Assembly (NCBI GenBank): GCA_020025795.1
Contig: JAHHRK010000001.1
Coordinates: 1-51,213 of the forward strand
Length of the DNA: 51,213 nt
Reading direction: 5' to 3'
From: Faecalibacterium sp.
Lineage (GTDB): Bacteria > Bacillota > Clostridia > Oscillospirales > Ruminococcaceae
Shown one piece after another: positions 16,296 through 36,588 of this stretch. The first letter of the stretch is position 1. The number at the start of each line of letters is the position of its first letter. Position numbers and translations under genes: made by a program. The notes beneath the pieces are model-generated. The model made no database searches and was not told the DNA's origin. It saw only the letters and a list, made by a program, of their open reading frames with translations.

Positions 16296-16781
16296 ATGAA
16301 AATCGGAATGTGGGAATTGGTTGTTATCGTGGTTGTAGCGATGATCTTCATCGGACCGGATAAGTTGCCCGAATATGCTCGTATGGCAGGTAAGTGGCTG
16401 CGTCAGCTGCGTACTTATACCGATACGGCAACCAAGGAAGTAAAGGAAATCACCGAACCGCTGAAGGAAATGACCGAGCCGCTGAAGGAGATCACCGATC
16501 CCCTCAACGCAATCAAAAAGGACATTACGGACAGTATGAACGATGTGACCAAGAGCATCGACAGCATCGGCAAGGAGCCTTCCAAGACGGAGCAGGCACG
16601 CAAGGCTGCTGCTGAGGAAGAAGTTGTTGAGCTGGAAGAAATCGCACCCGAAGCAGAAGCAGCAGAGGCTGTTGCCGCAATCGATGCCATCGGCAATGCG
16701 GCCGAAGCAGCACCTGCAGAACAGGCTGAGCCTGCAGCAGAAGAAGTTGCACCTGCCGCTGAGGAAACGGCATCCGTTTAA
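16296..16781 (+). CDS. tatB: TatA/TatB-family protein, TatB-like with long acidic tail
   Basis: MKIGMWELVVIVVVAMIFIGPDKLP + amphipathic helix; first gene of the tat operon. Confidence 0.75.
   Translation: MKIGMWELVVIVVVAMIFIGPDKLPEYARMAGKWLRQLRTYTDTATKEVKEITEPLKEMTEPLKEITDPLNAIKKDITDSMNDVTKSIDSIGKEPSKTEQARKAAAEEEVVELEEIAPEAEAAEAVAAIDAIGNAAEAAPAEQAEPAAEEVAPAAEETASV
16443..16505 (+). repeat. 3 x 21-bp imperfect tandem repeat (KEITEPL/KEMTEPL/KEITDPL)
   Basis: aaggaaatcaccgaaccgctg / aaggaaatgaccgagccgctg / aaggagatcaccgatcccctc. Confidence 0.9.
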
Positions 16782-16876: not shown

Positions 16877-17074
16877 ATGAGAATCGGAACCCAAGAATTG
16901 ATGATCATCCTGCTGGTTGTCCTGATTATTTTTGGACCCAAGCAGCTGCCGAAGCTGGGCAAGATGTTCGGCAAGACCATGCGTAACTTCAAGGACGGCA
17001 TCAGCGAGGCTGCTGACGACGACGATGAAGCACCCGCAGAAAAGAAGGAAGCAAAGACTGAGGATAAAGAGTAA
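16877..17074 (+). CDS. tatA: Twin-arginine translocase TatA
   Basis: MRIGTQELMIILLVVLIIFGPKQLPKLGKMFGKTMRNFK; SD AGGAG. Confidence 0.93.
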   Translation: MRIGTQELMIILLVVLIIFGPKQLPKLGKMFGKTMRNFKDGISEAADDDDEAPAEKKEAKTEDKE

Positions 17075-17077
17075 GAT

Positions 17078-17866
17078 ATGGCCAAAACACTGACGAAAAA
17101 AGCGGCAGTGGAACGAGACGGCAGTATGAGCCTTGGTGGCCACATGAAGGAACTGCGCAATCGCCTGGCGGTTTGCGCAGCAGTCTTTGTAATCGGCACG
17201 GTGTACTTTCTGGCAAATGCCGCTAAGCTGGTTACGCTGCTGGCCGATATGGGCAGAGTGTATGGATATCAGTTTGTTGTGATTTCCCCGCAGGAAAAAC
17301 TGTTGCAGTATTTCCGCCTGGCAATCATGGCTGCCATTATCCTTACTATTCCTGTTATACTGTATCAGATTTGGGCCTTTGCAAAGCCGGGCCTGAAAAA
17401 AAGCGAAAATCTGTTTTTCGGTATGACTCTGCTGTTGGGTCTGGGTCTGTTCTGCGTAGGTGTGCTTTTTGCCTACAAGGTCACCCTGCCCTTTATGCTG
17501 AACTTCCTGATTACACTGGAAGGTACCGATTTTATTACAGCGCAAATCAGTATTGCAAGCTATCTGAGCTTCGTTTTGATGATTTTTACCATTTTCGGAT
17601 GTATTTTTGAAATCCCGCTGGTAACTATCATCCTGGCAAAGCTGGGTATTGCAAGCCCCACGCTGATGAAAAAAGGCCGCGGTGTCGCAATCGTGATTTG
17701 CTTCTTTGTCGCTGCAGTCATTACTCCTCCGGATATTGTATCGCAGACCCTGGTGGCTATTCCCATGGTTCTGCTGTATCAAATCTCCATCTGGCTGGCA
17801 AAGATTTTCTACAAGCCCCATCTGGATGATGACGATGAGGATGACGAAGAAACTGACGAAGATTGA
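17078..17866 (+). CDS. tatC: Twin-arginine translocase TatC
   Basis: MSLGGHMKELRNRL, YQIWAFAKPGL, FEIP, AAVITPPD. Confidence 0.97.
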   Translation: MAKTLTKKAAVERDGSMSLGGHMKELRNRLAVCAAVFVIGTVYFLANAAKLVTLLADMGRVYGYQFVVISPQEKLLQYFRLAIMAAIILTIPVILYQIWAFAKPGLKKSENLFFGMTLLLGLGLFCVGVLFAYKVTLPFMLNFLITLEGTDFITAQISIASYLSFVLMIFTIFGCIFEIPLVTIILAKLGIASPTLMKKGRGVAIVICFFVAAVITPPDIVSQTLVAIPMVLLYQISIWLAKIFYKPHLDDDDEDDEETDED

Positions 17867-20870: not shown

Positions 20871-21593
20871 TCAAGCTTTGTGGCTGTAATCTCGTGCACC
20901 ATAAATGGCGGTGCCGATGCGCACGATGGTGGCACCTTCCCGCACGGCGTTTTCATAATCGCTGCTCATACCCATGGACAGCTGCTCCATCGAAACGTGT
21001 TCCAGATGGCGCTGCTGTGCGGCAAAAGCAAGCTCTCGCATCTGCGCAAAGTAGCGGCGGTTTTCGGCGTCACTTTGATCCGCAGGGGGAATGGCCATCA
21101 GACCTTTTACGCGCAGATGGTCAAACCCGGCGGCAGCCTCTAATAGTACAGGCAGTTCCGCTTCTGGTAAGCCGGTTTTGGAATCTTCTGCACCGATGTT
21201 TACTTCCAGCAGAATATCTTGTACCAAATCCAGCTTGGCGGCCTCTTTCTCAATGGCCTGCATTAAGCGCAAGCTGTCGACACTTTGAATCAGGCTGGCA
21301 CGGCCCAATACCTTTTTGATTTTGTTGGTTTGCAAATGTCCGATCAGGTGGGCAGGCTTGCCCAGATAGGCGCCGGCATCCGCATTGCGCACCAGCTCCT
21401 GTACATGGTTTTCGCCAAACAAATCAATGGGCAACTTAGCGCTTTCCATGACGGTTTCCGGGGTGCGTGTCTTGCAGGCAGCGCACAGCAGCACTTCGGC
21501 CGGGTTTCGTCCGGCTTCTTTGGCGGCTGTGGCGATTTTATCGCGGATGGATGCAACGACCTGCTCCATCTGCTGGGGAGAAATTTCCGGCAT
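20871..21593 (-). CDS. yggS: YggS/PipY-family PLP homeostasis protein
   Basis: AACKT (PLP lysine), FGENHVQE, HLIGHLQTNK, LSMGMSSD, VRIGTAIYG; start MPEISP. Confidence 0.93.
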   Translation of the reverse strand: MPEISPQQMEQVVASIRDKIATAAKEAGRNPAEVLLCAACKTRTPETVMESAKLPIDLFGENHVQELVRNADAGAYLGKPAHLIGHLQTNKIKKVLGRASLIQSVDSLRLMQAIEKEAAKLDLVQDILLEVNIGAEDSKTGLPEAELPVLLEAAAGFDHLRVKGLMAIPPADQSDAENRRYFAQMRELAFAAQQRHLEHVSMEQLSMGMSSDYENAVREGATIVRIGTAIYGARDYSHKA

Positions 21594-21595
21594 CG

Positions 21596-22156
21596 TTACA
21601 CCTCCTCCGGGTAGTGGGCACGGATGCCGCCAATCAGCTTGGGGCGGGTGCGAGCACACAGCAAAATAGCGCTGCCGATGTGGTCCAGGCTGAGCCGCAC
21701 CGGTACGGCTACACGCTTCAGATGCATACCAATCAGCGTGCCGCCAATGTCCAAACCGGCATTGGCACGAACCTCCTCTACCGCCACCGGCGCAGTAAAG
21801 TTCTGCCAGCAGGTGGTGGCCCAGCTGCCGCCTGCATGGGGCTGGGGCAGGACACACACCGGCTCATAGCCAAAGCGTTCGGCAGCTTCTTGTTCCAGCA
21901 CGATAGCACGGTTCAAATGCTCACAGCACTGGGCAGCCAGATAAATGCCATGTTCGGCCAGCAAGGGTGCAATGCCCTGATACACAGCGGCGGCAGCCTC
22001 CATGCTGGAATCCTTGCCGATGTGTCCGCCTACGATTTCGCTGGACGAACAGCCTACCACGAACAAATCGCCGGCTTTCAGGTGTGCGGTCTCAATCAGT
22101 TCGGCAGCAGCCTGGTGTGCCTGTTCTTCAATCTGTTTTCGTTCCATTGCTTCCAT
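21596..22156 (-). CDS. UPF0340/TIGR01440 (YwlG-like) protein
   Basis: VVGCSSSEI.GG.IGK, AAQCCEHLNRAIV, PHAGGS, GLDIGGTLIGMHL. Confidence 0.88.
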   Translation of the reverse strand: MEAMERKQIEEQAHQAAAELIETAHLKAGDLFVVGCSSSEIVGGHIGKDSSMEAAAAVYQGIAPLLAEHGIYLAAQCCEHLNRAIVLEQEAAERFGYEPVCVLPQPHAGGSWATTCWQNFTAPVAVEEVRANAGLDIGGTLIGMHLKRVAVPVRLSLDHIGSAILLCARTRPKLIGGIRAHYPEEV

Positions 22157-22169
22157 AGCGAAGCCTCCT

Positions 22170-23447
22170 TTATCGTGTAATGCCATACAGGCGGCCTGCG
22201 TCAGCGTTGGCCAGCCAGATGGTGGTTTCCGTTTCACAAATGCCAGTAATGCGTCCGTCCATGTTGGGCAGCTGTGCCGCCACAGCGCGGCTCAAGGTGC
22301 CGTCATCGGATATAGAAAATGCCCAGCCCGTGTCCGCTTGGGGGGTCAGCAGCCAGTGCTGTGTCAGATCAGGCAGATTGAGGACTACTTTGCGCAGCAA
22401 CGGTGCTCCGGCAGTTTTATCTACCCAGGAAATCGGCTTGCCGCATACAGCCGCCCAGACATCTCCATTTTGTGCAAGGGACAATCCAGCAGCATAGCCG
22501 TCCAGACCGTCTAAAAGGATTTTTCCGGCCTCTTGCACCGTTTCGGTGCGTGCGTCGGCAGGATAAGCCCAGACCCGGCGGGCGTTGGTTTCGCTCAGGT
22601 AGATGGTTTTGCCGTCTGGAGAAACCGCAATACCGCCTGCACCGGATAAACCGCCGGTCAGACGCTCTGCCTCGCCGGTGTGTGGGTCGAGCACATAAGC
22701 GGTACCACTATCGGTGTGGGCCAGCAGCTCGTTGAAAAAGCGCTGTTCCAGTCCGTCCTGTTCGATGGGCTGTTGTGCATACTGCGTGAAATATACAGTG
22801 CCGTCTGCGGCCACAGCGATAGCAGAAGGCGAGACCAGCGGCGCACCGTCTATGTCGGTTAAAATCGGTTTTACATCCACAGCCCAGCCGTCAAAGCTGG
22901 CACGGTAGATGGCATTGCCTCCTGCCAGATACAGGCTGCCGTCCGGCCCAAAAGCCATGCCGGAAATCTCGCTGTCGGTAGTGAATACTTCCGTCAGGCC
23001 GGTGCCGTCTTCACGAATACGAATGACCTTGTTGCCTTTGACAGCGGCATACAGCCAGCCGTCCTGCCAGGCGACGCACAGCGGTTTTTCATAGGGCGCA
23101 AGATCCAGTGCAGTAGTTTGTGTGTTACCCGCAGTGGTTAGGGACATCGCGGCCGTGGAAGGTTCATACGCCTGCGGCACAGCGGCAGGCGTGTGCAGCA
23201 CAAGAAAAGCAGCGTAGCCCACAAAACCAACAATCAGCAAAAAGCTGGTGACTACCTGGAAGCGGTGAAGCAAGGCGTCGCGTTCTGCCGCCGCTTGCCG
23301 CCGGACCTGCTCCTGCTGGCGCTGAATTTGTTTCTTTGTGTGCTCTGCGCGGCGCAGCCAGCCATGTACCCAGGGGATAACGGTGGGACCAAACAATATC
23401 AGGATAATGCAAAAAAGCAGAATCAATTCCCAAAAGCCGAACTTCAT
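22170..23447 (-). CDS. Membrane protein: TatA-like N-terminus + second TM + SMP-30/strictosidine-synthase-like beta-propeller
   Basis: MKFGFWELILLFCIILILFGP; propeller repeats GMAFGPDGSLYLA, AIAVAADGTVYFT, GIAVSPDGKTIYLSET. Confidence 0.75.
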   Translation of the reverse strand: MKFGFWELILLFCIILILFGPTVIPWVHGWLRRAEHTKKQIQRQQEQVRRQAAAERDALLHRFQVVTSFLLIVGFVGYAAFLVLHTPAAVPQAYEPSTAAMSLTTAGNTQTTALDLAPYEKPLCVAWQDGWLYAAVKGNKVIRIREDGTGLTEVFTTDSEISGMAFGPDGSLYLAGGNAIYRASFDGWAVDVKPILTDIDGAPLVSPSAIAVAADGTVYFTQYAQQPIEQDGLEQRFFNELLAHTDSGTAYVLDPHTGEAERLTGGLSGAGGIAVSPDGKTIYLSETNARRVWAYPADARTETVQEAGKILLDGLDGYAAGLSLAQNGDVWAAVCGKPISWVDKTAGAPLLRKVVLNLPDLTQHWLLTPQADTGWAFSISDDGTLSRAVAAQLPNMDGRITGICETETTIWLANADAGRLYGITR

Positions 23448-23642
23448 ATCAGGTTTCCTTCTCCGGCAGGAAGCCGGTAATATTTTATGAGAAAAAGTGC
23501 ATAATATCCACACTTGCAATATTACTACTATACCGCAAATTCCGGTAAAAATCGAGAGCCGCACAGTTAAAAATCTCCGGCGGGATTCTGTATCCGTGCA
23601 GGATATGCATGGTCGGGCCGAGGTGCAGGACAGGATGGGTGC

Positions 23643-23682
23643 AAAAAGAACCGATACAGGGGTTTCTGCATCGGTTCTTTTT
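23643..23682 (-). terminator. Terminator after the DJ-1 gene
   Basis: AAAAAGAACCGATACAG...CTGCATCGGTTCTTTTT. Confidence 0.8.
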
Positions 23683-34183: not shown

Positions 34184-35446
34184 ATGAAACTTTCACGCAG
34201 AGAATTTATTGAAAAGGCGGCCATTGCGGCAGCTGCAGCCGGTGTGCTGGTAGGCTGCGGCGGTCCGCTGCCGAGCCCTACGCCGGAACCGACACCCACC
34301 CCGACACCGACCCCCACGCCGGAACCGCCATATGATCCGGATGTACTGACGGGCGAAGGCCGTGCGCGCGATGCAAAGGACAGCCGTATTATTGGTATCA
34401 TGATCAATAATATGTCCAACACCAGCCGCCAGAATGCACGCCCCCATCGCGGCATTGGCGAAGCAAAGATCCTGATCGAAATCAAAGTCGAGGGCGGCAT
34501 TACCCGTTTCTGCGCTTTGTTTGATGATGTGGACGACATTCCTGAAATTGGACCCATCCGCTCCGGCCGTGACCAGTTTTTGCAGCTGATCCTGCCCTGG
34601 CAGGCTGTCTACTACCACGAGGGCGAGAGCGTGTTCTGCACCCGTTACATCAAGGATTGGGAGTACTGGGGCCTGAACTTCGGCGGAATGAGCTACTTCA
34701 AGACCCCCACCCAGCGCAACTATTCGCACCGCGACAAGCGCGGCCGTAATGTGGCAACCGAGCATACGCTGTTTACCAGCGGCGAGGAAGTCCAGAAGGC
34801 AATCGACAAGGCGGATCTGGATATGACCCGCAAATATAACAGTACTTTCTTTAAGTTTGCCGATTACCGCTATGATGAGTATGTAAGCCTGGACAACGGC
34901 GAGTCGGCCACCAGCGTGACCATTCGCCATTCTTCCAGCTATCGCACCTATTTCGATTACGATGCAGCAACCCAGACCTACAAAATGAGCATGTACAGCA
35001 ATGCAAGTAAGTCTGTCAGCCCGACCATCGATGAGAATACAGGCGAGCAGCTGAGCTTTACCAACCTGGTTGTTTTGTTCACCGCTATGGAAGCTTATCC
35101 CGGCGATTCGCACAATATCCAGGATGTGGACTATGACTACGGCGGAGTTGGCTATTACTTTACCAACGGCCGCTGCGAGATGATCGGCTGGCAGAAGGGC
35201 AGTCCCGGAAACGTTTTGATCCTCAACGACCATAATAGCGAGGACGACGAGATGGTGACCCTGAACTGCGGCAAGACCTACTTGTCCTTTGTAGACTTGA
35301 AAGAGGCCGAACACTTTAATTATGACGGCGAGGAAGATGCAGCCGGAGGCGACGACCTGAGCGATGCGGAAGATACTTCCGACGTGACGGATGCAGATGA
35401 TGCCGTTGTGGACGAAGATGCCGCAGCAGACATCAACACCGACTGA
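34184..35446 (+). CDS. DUF3048 (YerB-like) lipoprotein with twin-arginine signal
   Basis: MKLSRREFIEK, lipobox LVGC, PT linker; IMINN..ARP..GI..A....E..VEGGITRF, IGPIRSGR. Confidence 0.85.
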   Translation: MKLSRREFIEKAAIAAAAAGVLVGCGGPLPSPTPEPTPTPTPTPTPEPPYDPDVLTGEGRARDAKDSRIIGIMINNMSNTSRQNARPHRGIGEAKILIEIKVEGGITRFCALFDDVDDIPEIGPIRSGRDQFLQLILPWQAVYYHEGESVFCTRYIKDWEYWGLNFGGMSYFKTPTQRNYSHRDKRGRNVATEHTLFTSGEEVQKAIDKADLDMTRKYNSTFFKFADYRYDEYVSLDNGESATSVTIRHSSSYRTYFDYDAATQTYKMSMYSNASKSVSPTIDENTGEQLSFTNLVVLFTAMEAYPGDSHNIQDVDYDYGGVGYYFTNGRCEMIGWQKGSPGNVLILNDHNSEDDEMVTLNCGKTYLSFVDLKEAEHFNYDGEEDAAGGDDLSDAEDTSDVTDADDAVVDEDAAADINTD

Positions 35447-35487
35447 TTCAGCGCTAATCCCCAGATGAAGGAGAGTTTTTGCGACCC

Positions 35488-36588
35488 ATGAAACAATTGA
35501 TTGCAGCTATTTTGTGCGTGGCCCTGCTGTTGGCAGGCTGCGGTGCAGCGCCCAGCAGCAGCCAGATCGCATCTGACCAGGTGCAGGATGTGCTGCCGGA
35601 AGGCACGCAGCAGCCACTGGTAGCGGCCAAAGCGGTTTATCCGCTGACCGGCCAGGAACTGACAGGCGATGTGCAGCGTCCTGTGGCAGTGATGGTTAAT
35701 AATGCCGCCGCAGCCGGTGCACGCCAGTGGGGCCTGAGTGGTGCCAGTGTGATTATGGAAGCTCTGACCGAAGGTGAGACTACCAACTGGATGCTCTGGT
35801 TTGATAATCTGGAAAGTGTTCCAAAGGTTGGGCCTGTTGCACCGGGCAAGGATCTGTTCTGGCAGTTTGCGCTGCCCATGAACAGCATTCTGGTTCAGAA
35901 GGGCATGAATACCTATGCGGAAAATCTGCTGAATTGTTACGGATGGCAGCCGCTGGATGCCCTGATGCTGGGTGTGAACAGCTTTGACTATGATGGCAGC
36001 GATGCTGCTATGCCGATGGAATACGACTGGTATACACAGGGCGGTTCGCTGCAGTATGGCGTGGATCACTATCAGATTCCGCTGTCTGGTAAAGTACCTG
36101 TCTGGCAGTTCTTTGGTTCTCCGGTTCTGGGGCAGACGGCTGCTGCGTTAACCGTGAATTTTTCGGAAAAGCAGGGTACGACCCTGCGTTACGAAAACGG
36201 CGCATGGGTGATGTATCGTGCCGACGGAACCCAGCAGTTGGATGCCAATAATGGTGTTCCGGTTCAGGTAAACAATGTGCTGGTGCTGCGCAGCGAAGCG
36301 TCGGTTAAGGATGACAAGTTTACCCGTGAGTATAACCTTACCCAGGGCGAAGGCCTGTATCTGGTCAACGGAACCTGGCAGAAAATCACCTGGAAAAAGG
36401 GTGATGTAGCGGACGAGCTTCAGTTGTTTACCGAAAACGGAAATCCGCTGGTTCTGGCACCGGGCAAGAGCTATGTGGCTGTTTACGGCGACTTTGCCGG
36501 CCAGTCGCTGAGCATTACAGATGAAGAAGGCAACACGGTTTATCCGGAGGCAGAAACGGAGCCTGATACCGAAGCTGCTGCTGAATAA
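35488..36588 (+). CDS. Divergent DUF3048-like lipoprotein with Sec-type signal
   Basis: MKQLIAAILCVALLLAGC; PLTG, RPVAVMVNN, QWGLS.A, EG..T, KVGPV. Confidence 0.8.
   Translation: MKQLIAAILCVALLLAGCGAAPSSSQIASDQVQDVLPEGTQQPLVAAKAVYPLTGQELTGDVQRPVAVMVNNAAAAGARQWGLSGASVIMEALTEGETTNWMLWFDNLESVPKVGPVAPGKDLFWQFALPMNSILVQKGMNTYAENLLNCYGWQPLDALMLGVNSFDYDGSDAAMPMEYDWYTQGGSLQYGVDHYQIPLSGKVPVWQFFGSPVLGQTAAALTVNFSEKQGTTLRYENGAWVMYRADGTQQLDANNGVPVQVNNVLVLRSEASVKDDKFTREYNLTQGEGLYLVNGTWQKITWKKGDVADELQLFTENGNPLVLAPGKSYVAVYGDFAGQSLSITDEEGNTVYPEAETEPDTEAAAE

Follow-up and report, generated by a model that had tools for sequence, protein, structure and literature searches.

The gene and the predicted architecture of its product

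The window, a stretch of 51,213 nucleotides from the forward strand of contig JAHHRK010000001.1 of a Faecalibacterium sp. genome (assembly GCA_020025795.1), contains on its minus strand a coding sequence (CDS) at positions 22170-23447, which starts with the ATG at 23447 and ends with the stop codon at 22170-22172. The predicted product of 425 amino acids (aa) combines an N-terminal helix resembling those of TatA and TatB of the machinery for twin-arginine translocation (Tat) with a second transmembrane helix (TM2) and an extracytoplasmic beta-propeller. An earlier note made from the sequence alone had drawn attention to this open reading frame (ORF), and it is a genuine gene with a ribosome-binding site and with homologues that share its start methionine. 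A longer frame from GTG 23564 was dismissed because the homologues in the databases begin at the methionine of ATG 23447. The hairpin behind the upstream DJ-1 family gene is a probable terminator, which would set the start of the transcription unit. The gene and the surrounding features are summarized in Table 1; in the following we call it the fusion gene.

The fusion protein is probably also produced: a protein detected at ordinary abundance in F. duncaniae (PMC13020158, supplementary tables) is probably its orthologue, because there is one family member per genome. The same supplementary tables list TatA. For F. duncaniae A2-165, the probable orthologue is publicly listed with 382 aa and labelled "Fragment" (PMC13020158, supplementary tables); if it is the N-terminus that is missing from this entry, this could explain why the TatA/B-like helix went unnoticed.

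The basic helix, the second transmembrane (TM) segment and the propeller related to SGL and strictosidine synthase, all of them proposed earlier, were confirmed. Both propeller models of Pfam scored above their cut-offs, SGL (PF08450) over aa 136-336 with E 1.7e-19 and 70.8 bits (cut-off 26.3) and Str_synth (PF03088) with E 3.2e-8 and 34.0 bits (cut-off 25.0). An AlphaFold2 model calculated from an 81-row alignment reached a mean predicted local distance difference test score (pLDDT) of 93.3 and contains a six-bladed propeller over residues 111-424. Using Foldseek, strictosidine synthases were identified as the nearest folds (TM-score 0.79-0.80 on the target, E 2e-17), followed by beta-propeller lactonases, Drp35, SMP30 and PON1, with TM-scores of about 0.70-0.74 for the lactonases.

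The loop between the two TM helices (residues 22-62) holds most of the Arg and Lys residues and is therefore predicted to be cytoplasmic, with the N-terminus and the propeller outside. From this it follows directly that the product would be a two-helix membrane protein with both ends outside, an Arg-rich cytoplasmic loop and a propeller tethered to the outer face by a flexible stalk. The predicted N-out topology agrees with the N-out orientation of TatA and TatB and with the type-II anchoring of distant propeller homologues. It finds no help in the AlphaFold2 model, which draws residues 5-84 as a single straight helix with a confidence of 71-79 in the first 30 residues; such a predicted helix cannot be the membrane-embedded shape, and the model is uninformative on topology.

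Table 1. Features of the fusion gene, its predicted product and its surroundings in the window. Mean pairwise identity and invariant columns were calculated over 31 distinct Faecalibacterium sequences.
Feature	Position	Strand	Basis	Mean identity	Invariant columns
Whole CDS: TatA/B-like helix, basic helix, second TM, stalk, six-bladed propeller	22170-23447	-	ORF, Pfam, AlphaFold2		
aa 1-21: TatA/B-type short TM helix (TM1) and hinge (Gly4, Glu7, 12 hydrophobic residues 8-19, Gly20-Pro21)	23385-23447	-	PF02416, profile matches, conservation	0.62	7/21 (Met1, Gly4, Glu7, Leu10, Ile14, Gly20, Pro21)
aa 22-40: amphipathic helix past the hinge, diverged from its TatA/B counterpart (4-residue gap vs TatB)	23328-23384	-	Alignments	0.46	0/19
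aa 41-62: Arg/Gln/Ala-rich helix, predicted cytoplasmic	23262-23327	-	AlphaFold2, conservation	0.59	3/22 (Arg43, Arg56, Arg62)
aa 63-85: second TM (TM2), aligning with the single N-terminal anchor of distant SSL homologues	23193-23261	-	Alignments	0.42	2/23 (Phe63, Leu82)
aa 86-120: predicted extracytoplasmic stalk, poorly conserved	23088-23192	-	Mean identity; pLDDT down to 70	0.35	1/35
aa 121-425: six-bladed SGL/strictosidine-synthase-like beta-propeller without canonical Asn and Asp metal ligands	22173-23087	-	Pfam, AlphaFold2, Foldseek, alignments	0.51	29/305
Ribosome-binding site (GGAG/AAGGA), 8-17 nt 5' of the ATG	23455-23464	-	Sequence read directly		
Promoter-like site TGGATA, 17 nt, TAAAAT	23482-23510	-	Consensus match only		
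Hairpin and T-run past the upstream DJ-1 family gene	23643-23678	-	Sequence read directly; hairpin not flagged by a pattern scan		
TIGR01440 family gene, 14 nt downstream of the fusion gene	21596-22156	-	Next to the fusion gene in 34/34 related loci		
YggS family pyridoxal phosphate protein (start approximate)	20871-21593	-	Follows TIGR01440 in 33/34 loci; the remaining locus ends before		
TatC	17078-17866	+	193.6 bits		
TatA, local tat operon	16877-17074	+	PF02416, 67.1 bits		
TatB-like protein, local tat operon	16296-16781	+	PF02416, 44.9 bits		

Relationship of the N-terminal helix to TatA and TatB

The positions Met1, Gly4, Glu7, a spacer of twelve residues, Gly20 and Pro21 are identical in the fusion protein and in the TatA and the TatB-like protein of the genus, and the register with the local proteins that the earlier note had described, including the polar Glu7 and the Gly20-Pro21 hinge, thus stood up to alignment. 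With hhalign, an alignment of 31 module sequences matched the genus TatA with a probability of 96.7% over 26 columns and the genus TatB-like protein with 96.8% over 35 columns, the latter with a 4-residue gap past the hinge; a comparison of the genus TatA with the TatB-like protein gave 98.6%. These figures do not say which of the two paralogues would have donated the helix. The Pfam model of the TatA family, PF02416 (TatA_B_E), aligned residues 4-27 of the fusion protein with profile positions 2-25 of 53 (E 2e-4, 20.9 bits), so that a TatA-family match is present, 0.1 bit under the curated cut-off.

Searches in the reverse direction led back to the same family. A profile of 19 sequences of residues 1-62, compared with the 177,635 distinct sequences of the PDB, had as its top three matches E. 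coli TatB (twice) and B. subtilis TatAd (E 1e-4, 1.2e-4 and 5e-3), with Glu7 of the fusion protein paired with Glu8 of TatB. Against 1.84 billion representative sequences the profile of these residues found 160 matches at E <= 1e-3, of which 150 were listed, and members or fragments of its own family ranked first. Twenty of the listed matches had E values of 3e-5 to 7.3e-4, and 16 of them, that is all except four fragments of 33-42 aa, were scanned with PF02416: the 14 small proteins (55-136 aa) all passed the cut-off, and the other two were divergent full-length members with the same architecture. As a control we searched the own assembly, unfiltered, with the 31-sequence module profile using all 18,474 six-frame stop-to-stop frames of at least 40 aa. 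The fusion protein itself scored 96.3 bits and was followed only by the three TatA/B genes (27.3, 26.1 and 22.7 bits), with the next frame at 9.3 bits. Two weak PF02416 matches elsewhere in the genome were dropped, one in a non-coding frame (L005, E 0.15) and one inside a transporter TM segment (L006, E 0.37). A look-up in a protein atlas with residues 1-95 gave no usable match.

It could be argued that the resemblance is one of chance, with a simple hydrophobic helix at the N-terminus and the Gly-Pro behind it imitating the TM portion of the Pfam model although the two do not share an ancestor, and a number of results count against a TatA/B origin in this way. The PF02416 score lies just below its cut-off (20.9 vs 21.0) and covers only profile positions 2-25; the model was reached at E <= 0.01 by just 10 of 29 aligned family members. 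The NCBIfam models were far from their cut-offs (tatB TIGR01410 over residues 3-48, E 4e-4, 20.8 bits vs 56.5; TIGR01411, 14.8 bits vs 53.9). Past the hinge the likeness to TatA/B fades: an amphipathic pattern is present, but the Pfam match ends at position 25 of 53, the gap against TatB falls into the amphipathic helix, and the Leu-Pro usual after the hinge (Pro25) is kept in just 5 of the 31 sequences. In addition, PF02416 is among the Pfam models described as prone to TM-driven false matches (PMC2912341, PMC3217874), with 13.6% problematic matches in the study PMC2912341. However, outside the family the reciprocal profile found only TatA/B among the top three PDB matches, among the scanned representative matches and in the own genome, and the register is the same as in TatA and the TatB-like protein of the genus, with the hhalign values given above. 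A chance resemblance is therefore highly improbable and largely refuted, and these comparisons indicate that the N-terminal helix is very probably derived from TatA/B.

Like TatA, TatB and TatE (PF02416), the fusion protein has a short helix from residue 1 with a 6-residue tail, a Glu matching TatB Glu8, a hydrophobic stretch of exactly 12 residues and a Gly-Pro hinge, past which an amphipathic pattern is present. It differs from them by its length of 425 aa, with a second TM and a predicted extracytoplasmic propeller instead of a short cytoplasmic tail, by the diverged amphipathic helix, by scores below the curated cut-offs and by a gene located outside the tat operon. With the SGL/strictosidine-synthase-like propellers it shares Pfam models above cut-off, the six-bladed fold and TM2, which corresponds to the anchor of the homologues. 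The distant homologues, named sugar lactone lactonases by the source databases, start with just one TM, which in the alignment falls on TM2 and the Pro-rich segment behind it, and carry SSL_N, Str_synth and SGL domains; the additional TatA/B-like helix is unique to the fusion family. Because this is the architecture expected from a read-through fusion, we infer that two complete genes were naturally joined, one for a small TatA/B paralogue (aa 1 to about 60) and one for a type-II-anchored SSL/SGL propeller (aa 63-425). Profile searches, Pfam and AlphaFold2 together support the architecture of a TatA/B-type helix, a second TM and an extracytoplasmic propeller. Three further proteins (P0144, with three SLH domains, P0132 and P0154) were rejected as new architectures; in each of them the propeller protein switches abruptly into unrelated sequence, and they are most likely chimeric contigs or frameshifted gene calls.

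Natural gene fusions often indicate partners that work together. A precedent for natural fusions of Tat parts in a Tat-heavy lineage is the haloarchaeal TatC with 14 TM segments (PMC13673990). In that case two TatC copies are joined, whereas the Faecalibacterium fusion would join a TatA/B-type helix to a non-Tat extracytoplasmic domain. A literature search that included a 2026 Tat review and was made without most subscription journals turned up no account of a naturally occurring fusion between TatA/B and a propeller.

The propeller itself deviates from its distant homologues at two positions, the Asn of an "xNG" motif and the Asp of a "PDN" motif. Each is present in 40 of 40 distant homologues and in none of the 41 module-bearing family members, and the two columns presumably, although not on the basis of a residue-level alignment, correspond to metal-ligand positions of SMP30. 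The position of the blade-1 Glu is ambiguous in the alignment (Pro or Leu in the fusion protein, Asp in 14 of the 41 family members). In SMP30 the metal is held by Glu18, Asn154 and Asp204, and DFPase, Drp35 and PON1 have equivalent ligands (PMC3551927). A phmmer search of the propeller against the PDB was unusable for residue mapping, because repeat matches to designed WD40 proteins prevailed in it. Since the Asn and the Asp, the presumed ligands of the lactonase metal, are both lost, a classical metal lactonase appears unlikely, and the propeller is more likely to be a binding module or a non-metal enzyme. The loss need not mean inactivity, because the aligned plant strictosidine synthases likewise lack both residues and are nevertheless enzymes.

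Distribution, genomic context and Tat use in Faecalibacterium

The fusion gene is present as a single copy in 86 of 91 Faecalibacterium genomes and in all 41 high-quality ones, and TatC in 88 of the 91 and in the same 41 of 41. Except for one match ending at a contig edge (G480), the matches in the genus start at profile position 1. At E <= 1e-20 the fusion gene was found in none of 397 genomes from other genera of the family, and in none of 400 other genomes of the order. TatC, a core protein of Faecalibacterium, is scarce in the rest of the family, with 12 positive genomes among the 397, belonging to 8 genera. In a class-wide sample of 400 genomes the fusion gene was the only PF02416 match in a long frame; the 22 other matches lie in frames of 62-163 aa. 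TatA/B genes are similarly rare in this sample (13 of 400 genomes). The NCBI titles of the related loci name Faecalibacterium. Carriers of the divergent family members P0216, P0225, P0207 and P0201 were found neither among the 400 genomes of the order nor in two metagenome scans.

Within the genus, 84 genomes contain both genes, 2 only the fusion gene, 4 only tatC and 1 neither, and all 7 discordant genomes are less than 90% complete. The N-terminus is therefore not common in genomes lacking tatC (a frequent occurrence there would have contradicted the earlier note), and the two fusion-only genomes are both among the incomplete ones. The test of co-occurrence with tatC proposed there has no power to show a functional link, because both are core genes of one genus and the distribution reflects a single evolutionary event. 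The fusion has its origin in a Tat-positive lineage and has not left it.

The 3' end of the fusion gene is located 4.3 kb from the end of tatC, which bears out the distance of about 4 kb to the tat operon noticed before. Four genes lie in between, encoding a ROK glucokinase, an ABC transporter, YggS and the TIGR01440 family protein. Both genes are on one contig in 29 genomes. In 22 of these they are 2.8-10.2 kb apart and always on opposite strands, and in the other 7 the distance ranges from 22 kb to hundreds of kb; the proximity is residual synteny and not an operon. The conserved partners of the fusion gene are the TIGR01440 and YggS genes, which are about 75-95% identical across the genus (62-95% over the loci L016-L045), in contrast to the propeller protein, which goes down to 30-35%. 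This contrast is in line with rapid evolution of a surface protein.

In Firmicutes, TatA and TatC are not usually accompanied by a TatB-type partner. The TatB-like protein of the window has short acidic tail repeats built around Glu-Pro-Leu-Lys/Asn-Glu, and its length in the genus ranges between 151 and 242 aa. A third, stand-alone TatA paralogue (G000:C18:21163-21297 on the minus strand, a 63-aa frame with 30.8 bits) is confined to the small-genome clade of the window (G000, G166, G461) among the 29 near-complete genomes searched.

The Tat signal model TIGR01409 gave 37-44 matches per complete Faecalibacterium genome and 12-14 in the small-genome clade of the window. The genome of the window itself has 12. 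A motif scan of this assembly revealed 18 frames with a twin-arginine-type N-terminus, 12 of them with a lipobox Cys behind a clear consensus motif. In the proteome of F. duncaniae, lipoproteins with a Tat signal are among the most abundant proteins of the membrane fraction (PMC13020158). Tat seems to be a main export route for lipoproteins in Faecalibacterium. One of the twin-arginine lipobox frames lies in the window (34184-35446, plus strand); its product has no NCBIfam family match. Together with 35479-36588 (plus strand) it looks like a pair of tandem paralogous lipoproteins, the first with a twin-arginine signal and the second with a Sec-type lipoprotein signal. The other such frames are located on the G000 contigs C19, C31, C32, C44, C50, C53, C91, C94, C101 and C107, and at least one of the twelve (L076) resembles a transporter binding protein.

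Conservation of the helix and possible roles at the translocon

The Tat-like helix with its hinge is the most conserved segment of the fusion protein and exceeds TM2 in this respect (Table 1). Glu7, Gly20 and Pro21 are each present in 31 of 31 genus sequences and are kept also in four divergent members, and the 12-residue stretch between Glu7 and Gly20 contains no indel in any of the 31 sequences or in the 10 of 10 divergent members; its positions 16 and 18 are Ser or Thr in many members. TatA and TatB helices have only 12 consecutive hydrophobic residues, a strictly conserved length, and the mismatch caused by it matters for the stability of TatB-TatC (PMC9424591). In structures obtained by cryo-electron microscopy (cryo-EM), TatB Glu8 forms a hydrogen bond with TatC Thr208, TatC Gln215 bonds to the backbone of Glu8, TatC Met205 packs between TatB Ile4 and Leu9, and the TatA helix uses the same site as TatB (PMC13323110). 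In the local TatC, Thr216 and Gln223 align with Thr208 and Gln215 from the polar cluster of E. coli TatC; both are unchanged throughout a set of 45 TatC sequences, almost all of which share at least 60% identity with the TatC of the window. The strong conservation of the helix suggests that it may still make Tat-type contacts. A complex prediction with TatC (45-row alignment) and residues 1-45 of the module (19 rows), calculated without controls, gave no answer (score 0.00) and counts neither way.

We consider it possible, with a probability of roughly 40%, that the helix still makes such contacts and tethers the propeller at the translocon. The TatA/B-like helix would then have been kept as a Tat-type docking helix. 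It would sit between TatC protomers in the site used by TatA and TatB, where Glu7 would meet the polar cluster of Thr216 and Gln223, or else join TatA/B assemblies. In either case docking would keep the propeller close to where cargo leaves a translocon that appears to export mainly lipoproteins in Faecalibacterium.

The genomic data weigh against docking. The fusion gene is outside the tat operon and on the opposite strand, its conserved neighbours TIGR01440 and YggS are not Tat-related, its spacing from tatC is variable, with a large separation in 7 of 29 genomes, and the co-occurrence with tatC carries no weight. Because the twelve Tat-positive genomes of other genera do without the fusion, it is not a general part of Tat. 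Except for the uninformative co-occurrence, all of these points, as well as the diverged amphipathic helix, would be expected if the helix were a relic of the fusion event that serves just as a second membrane helix or topology determinant, without contact to Tat, in a surface-tethered propeller enzyme or binder. Glu7 could then aid translocation of the N-terminal tail, or TM1 could pack on TM2; a possible partner for Glu7 is residue 85, located where TM2 reaches the outer face and occupied by Arg or His in 30 of 31 genus sequences. A hydrophobic stretch of 12 residues is, however, a poor stand-alone anchor, yet its length is fixed in all 31 sequences, and TM1 is more conserved than TM2. Moreover, Glu7 is retained where residue 85 is Trp, Cys or His (four divergent members) or Gly (two closer members). 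A helix that is only an anchor is possible and just slightly less likely than docking.

In the most far-reaching version of docking, the fusion protein would be a fourth kind of Tat subunit, with the helix in one TatA/TatB site of the TatC trimer and the propeller over the exit face, where it handles emerging folded cargo. The long basic helix would reach to the rim of the complex and TM2 would cross the membrane there; with lipoproteins as cargo, a role in release or in the hand-over of the signal anchor to lipoprotein maturation is conceivable. We regard this specific version as unlikely.

The conservation that speaks for docking is equally compatible with a competitor, which would bind to the TatA/TatB site and tune the assembly of the translocon, with the outer propeller as a sensor. 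TatA and TatB share one site in the solved complexes (PMC13323110), and a third occupant would have to compete for it. No ligand or signal is known, though, the probable orthologue has an ordinary abundance, and nothing separates such a regulator from a helper; we judge this role to be distinctly unlikely. Finally, the fusion protein could itself be a Tat substrate whose propeller folds in the cytoplasm, with TM2 as an uncleaved Tat signal-anchor and the TatA/B-like helix helping in cis. The invariant pair Arg62-Phe63 ahead of TM2 and the frequent binding of cofactors by propellers of the SGL clan would fit to this explanation. But a twin arginine is absent (residue 61 is His, Gln, Lys, Thr or Arg), none of the 12 TIGR01409 matches of the genome lies in the fusion gene, and the distant homologues with a plain single anchor show no link to Tat, which makes export of this kind very unlikely.

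To our knowledge, no factor that assists the Tat translocon from its exit side has been described, and how folded cargo and signal anchor leave the Tat complex is an open question. The fusion protein is a concrete candidate for a Tat helper, as it is genus-wide, single-copy and probably expressed, carries a large domain predicted to lie outside the cell and retains the helix features that bind TatC in the cryo-EM structures. If it were a fourth subunit, no accessory on the trans side of a Tat translocon would have preceded it. It could also act as a natural topological probe for this machinery. If the helix is just an anchor, the gene would document the reuse of a TatA/B helix outside the Tat system, and in this instance a Pfam match confined to a TM segment very probably reflects genuine homology. 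Faecalibacterium itself is a major commensal of the human gut and apparently relies on Tat for its lipoproteins, transporter binding proteins among them.

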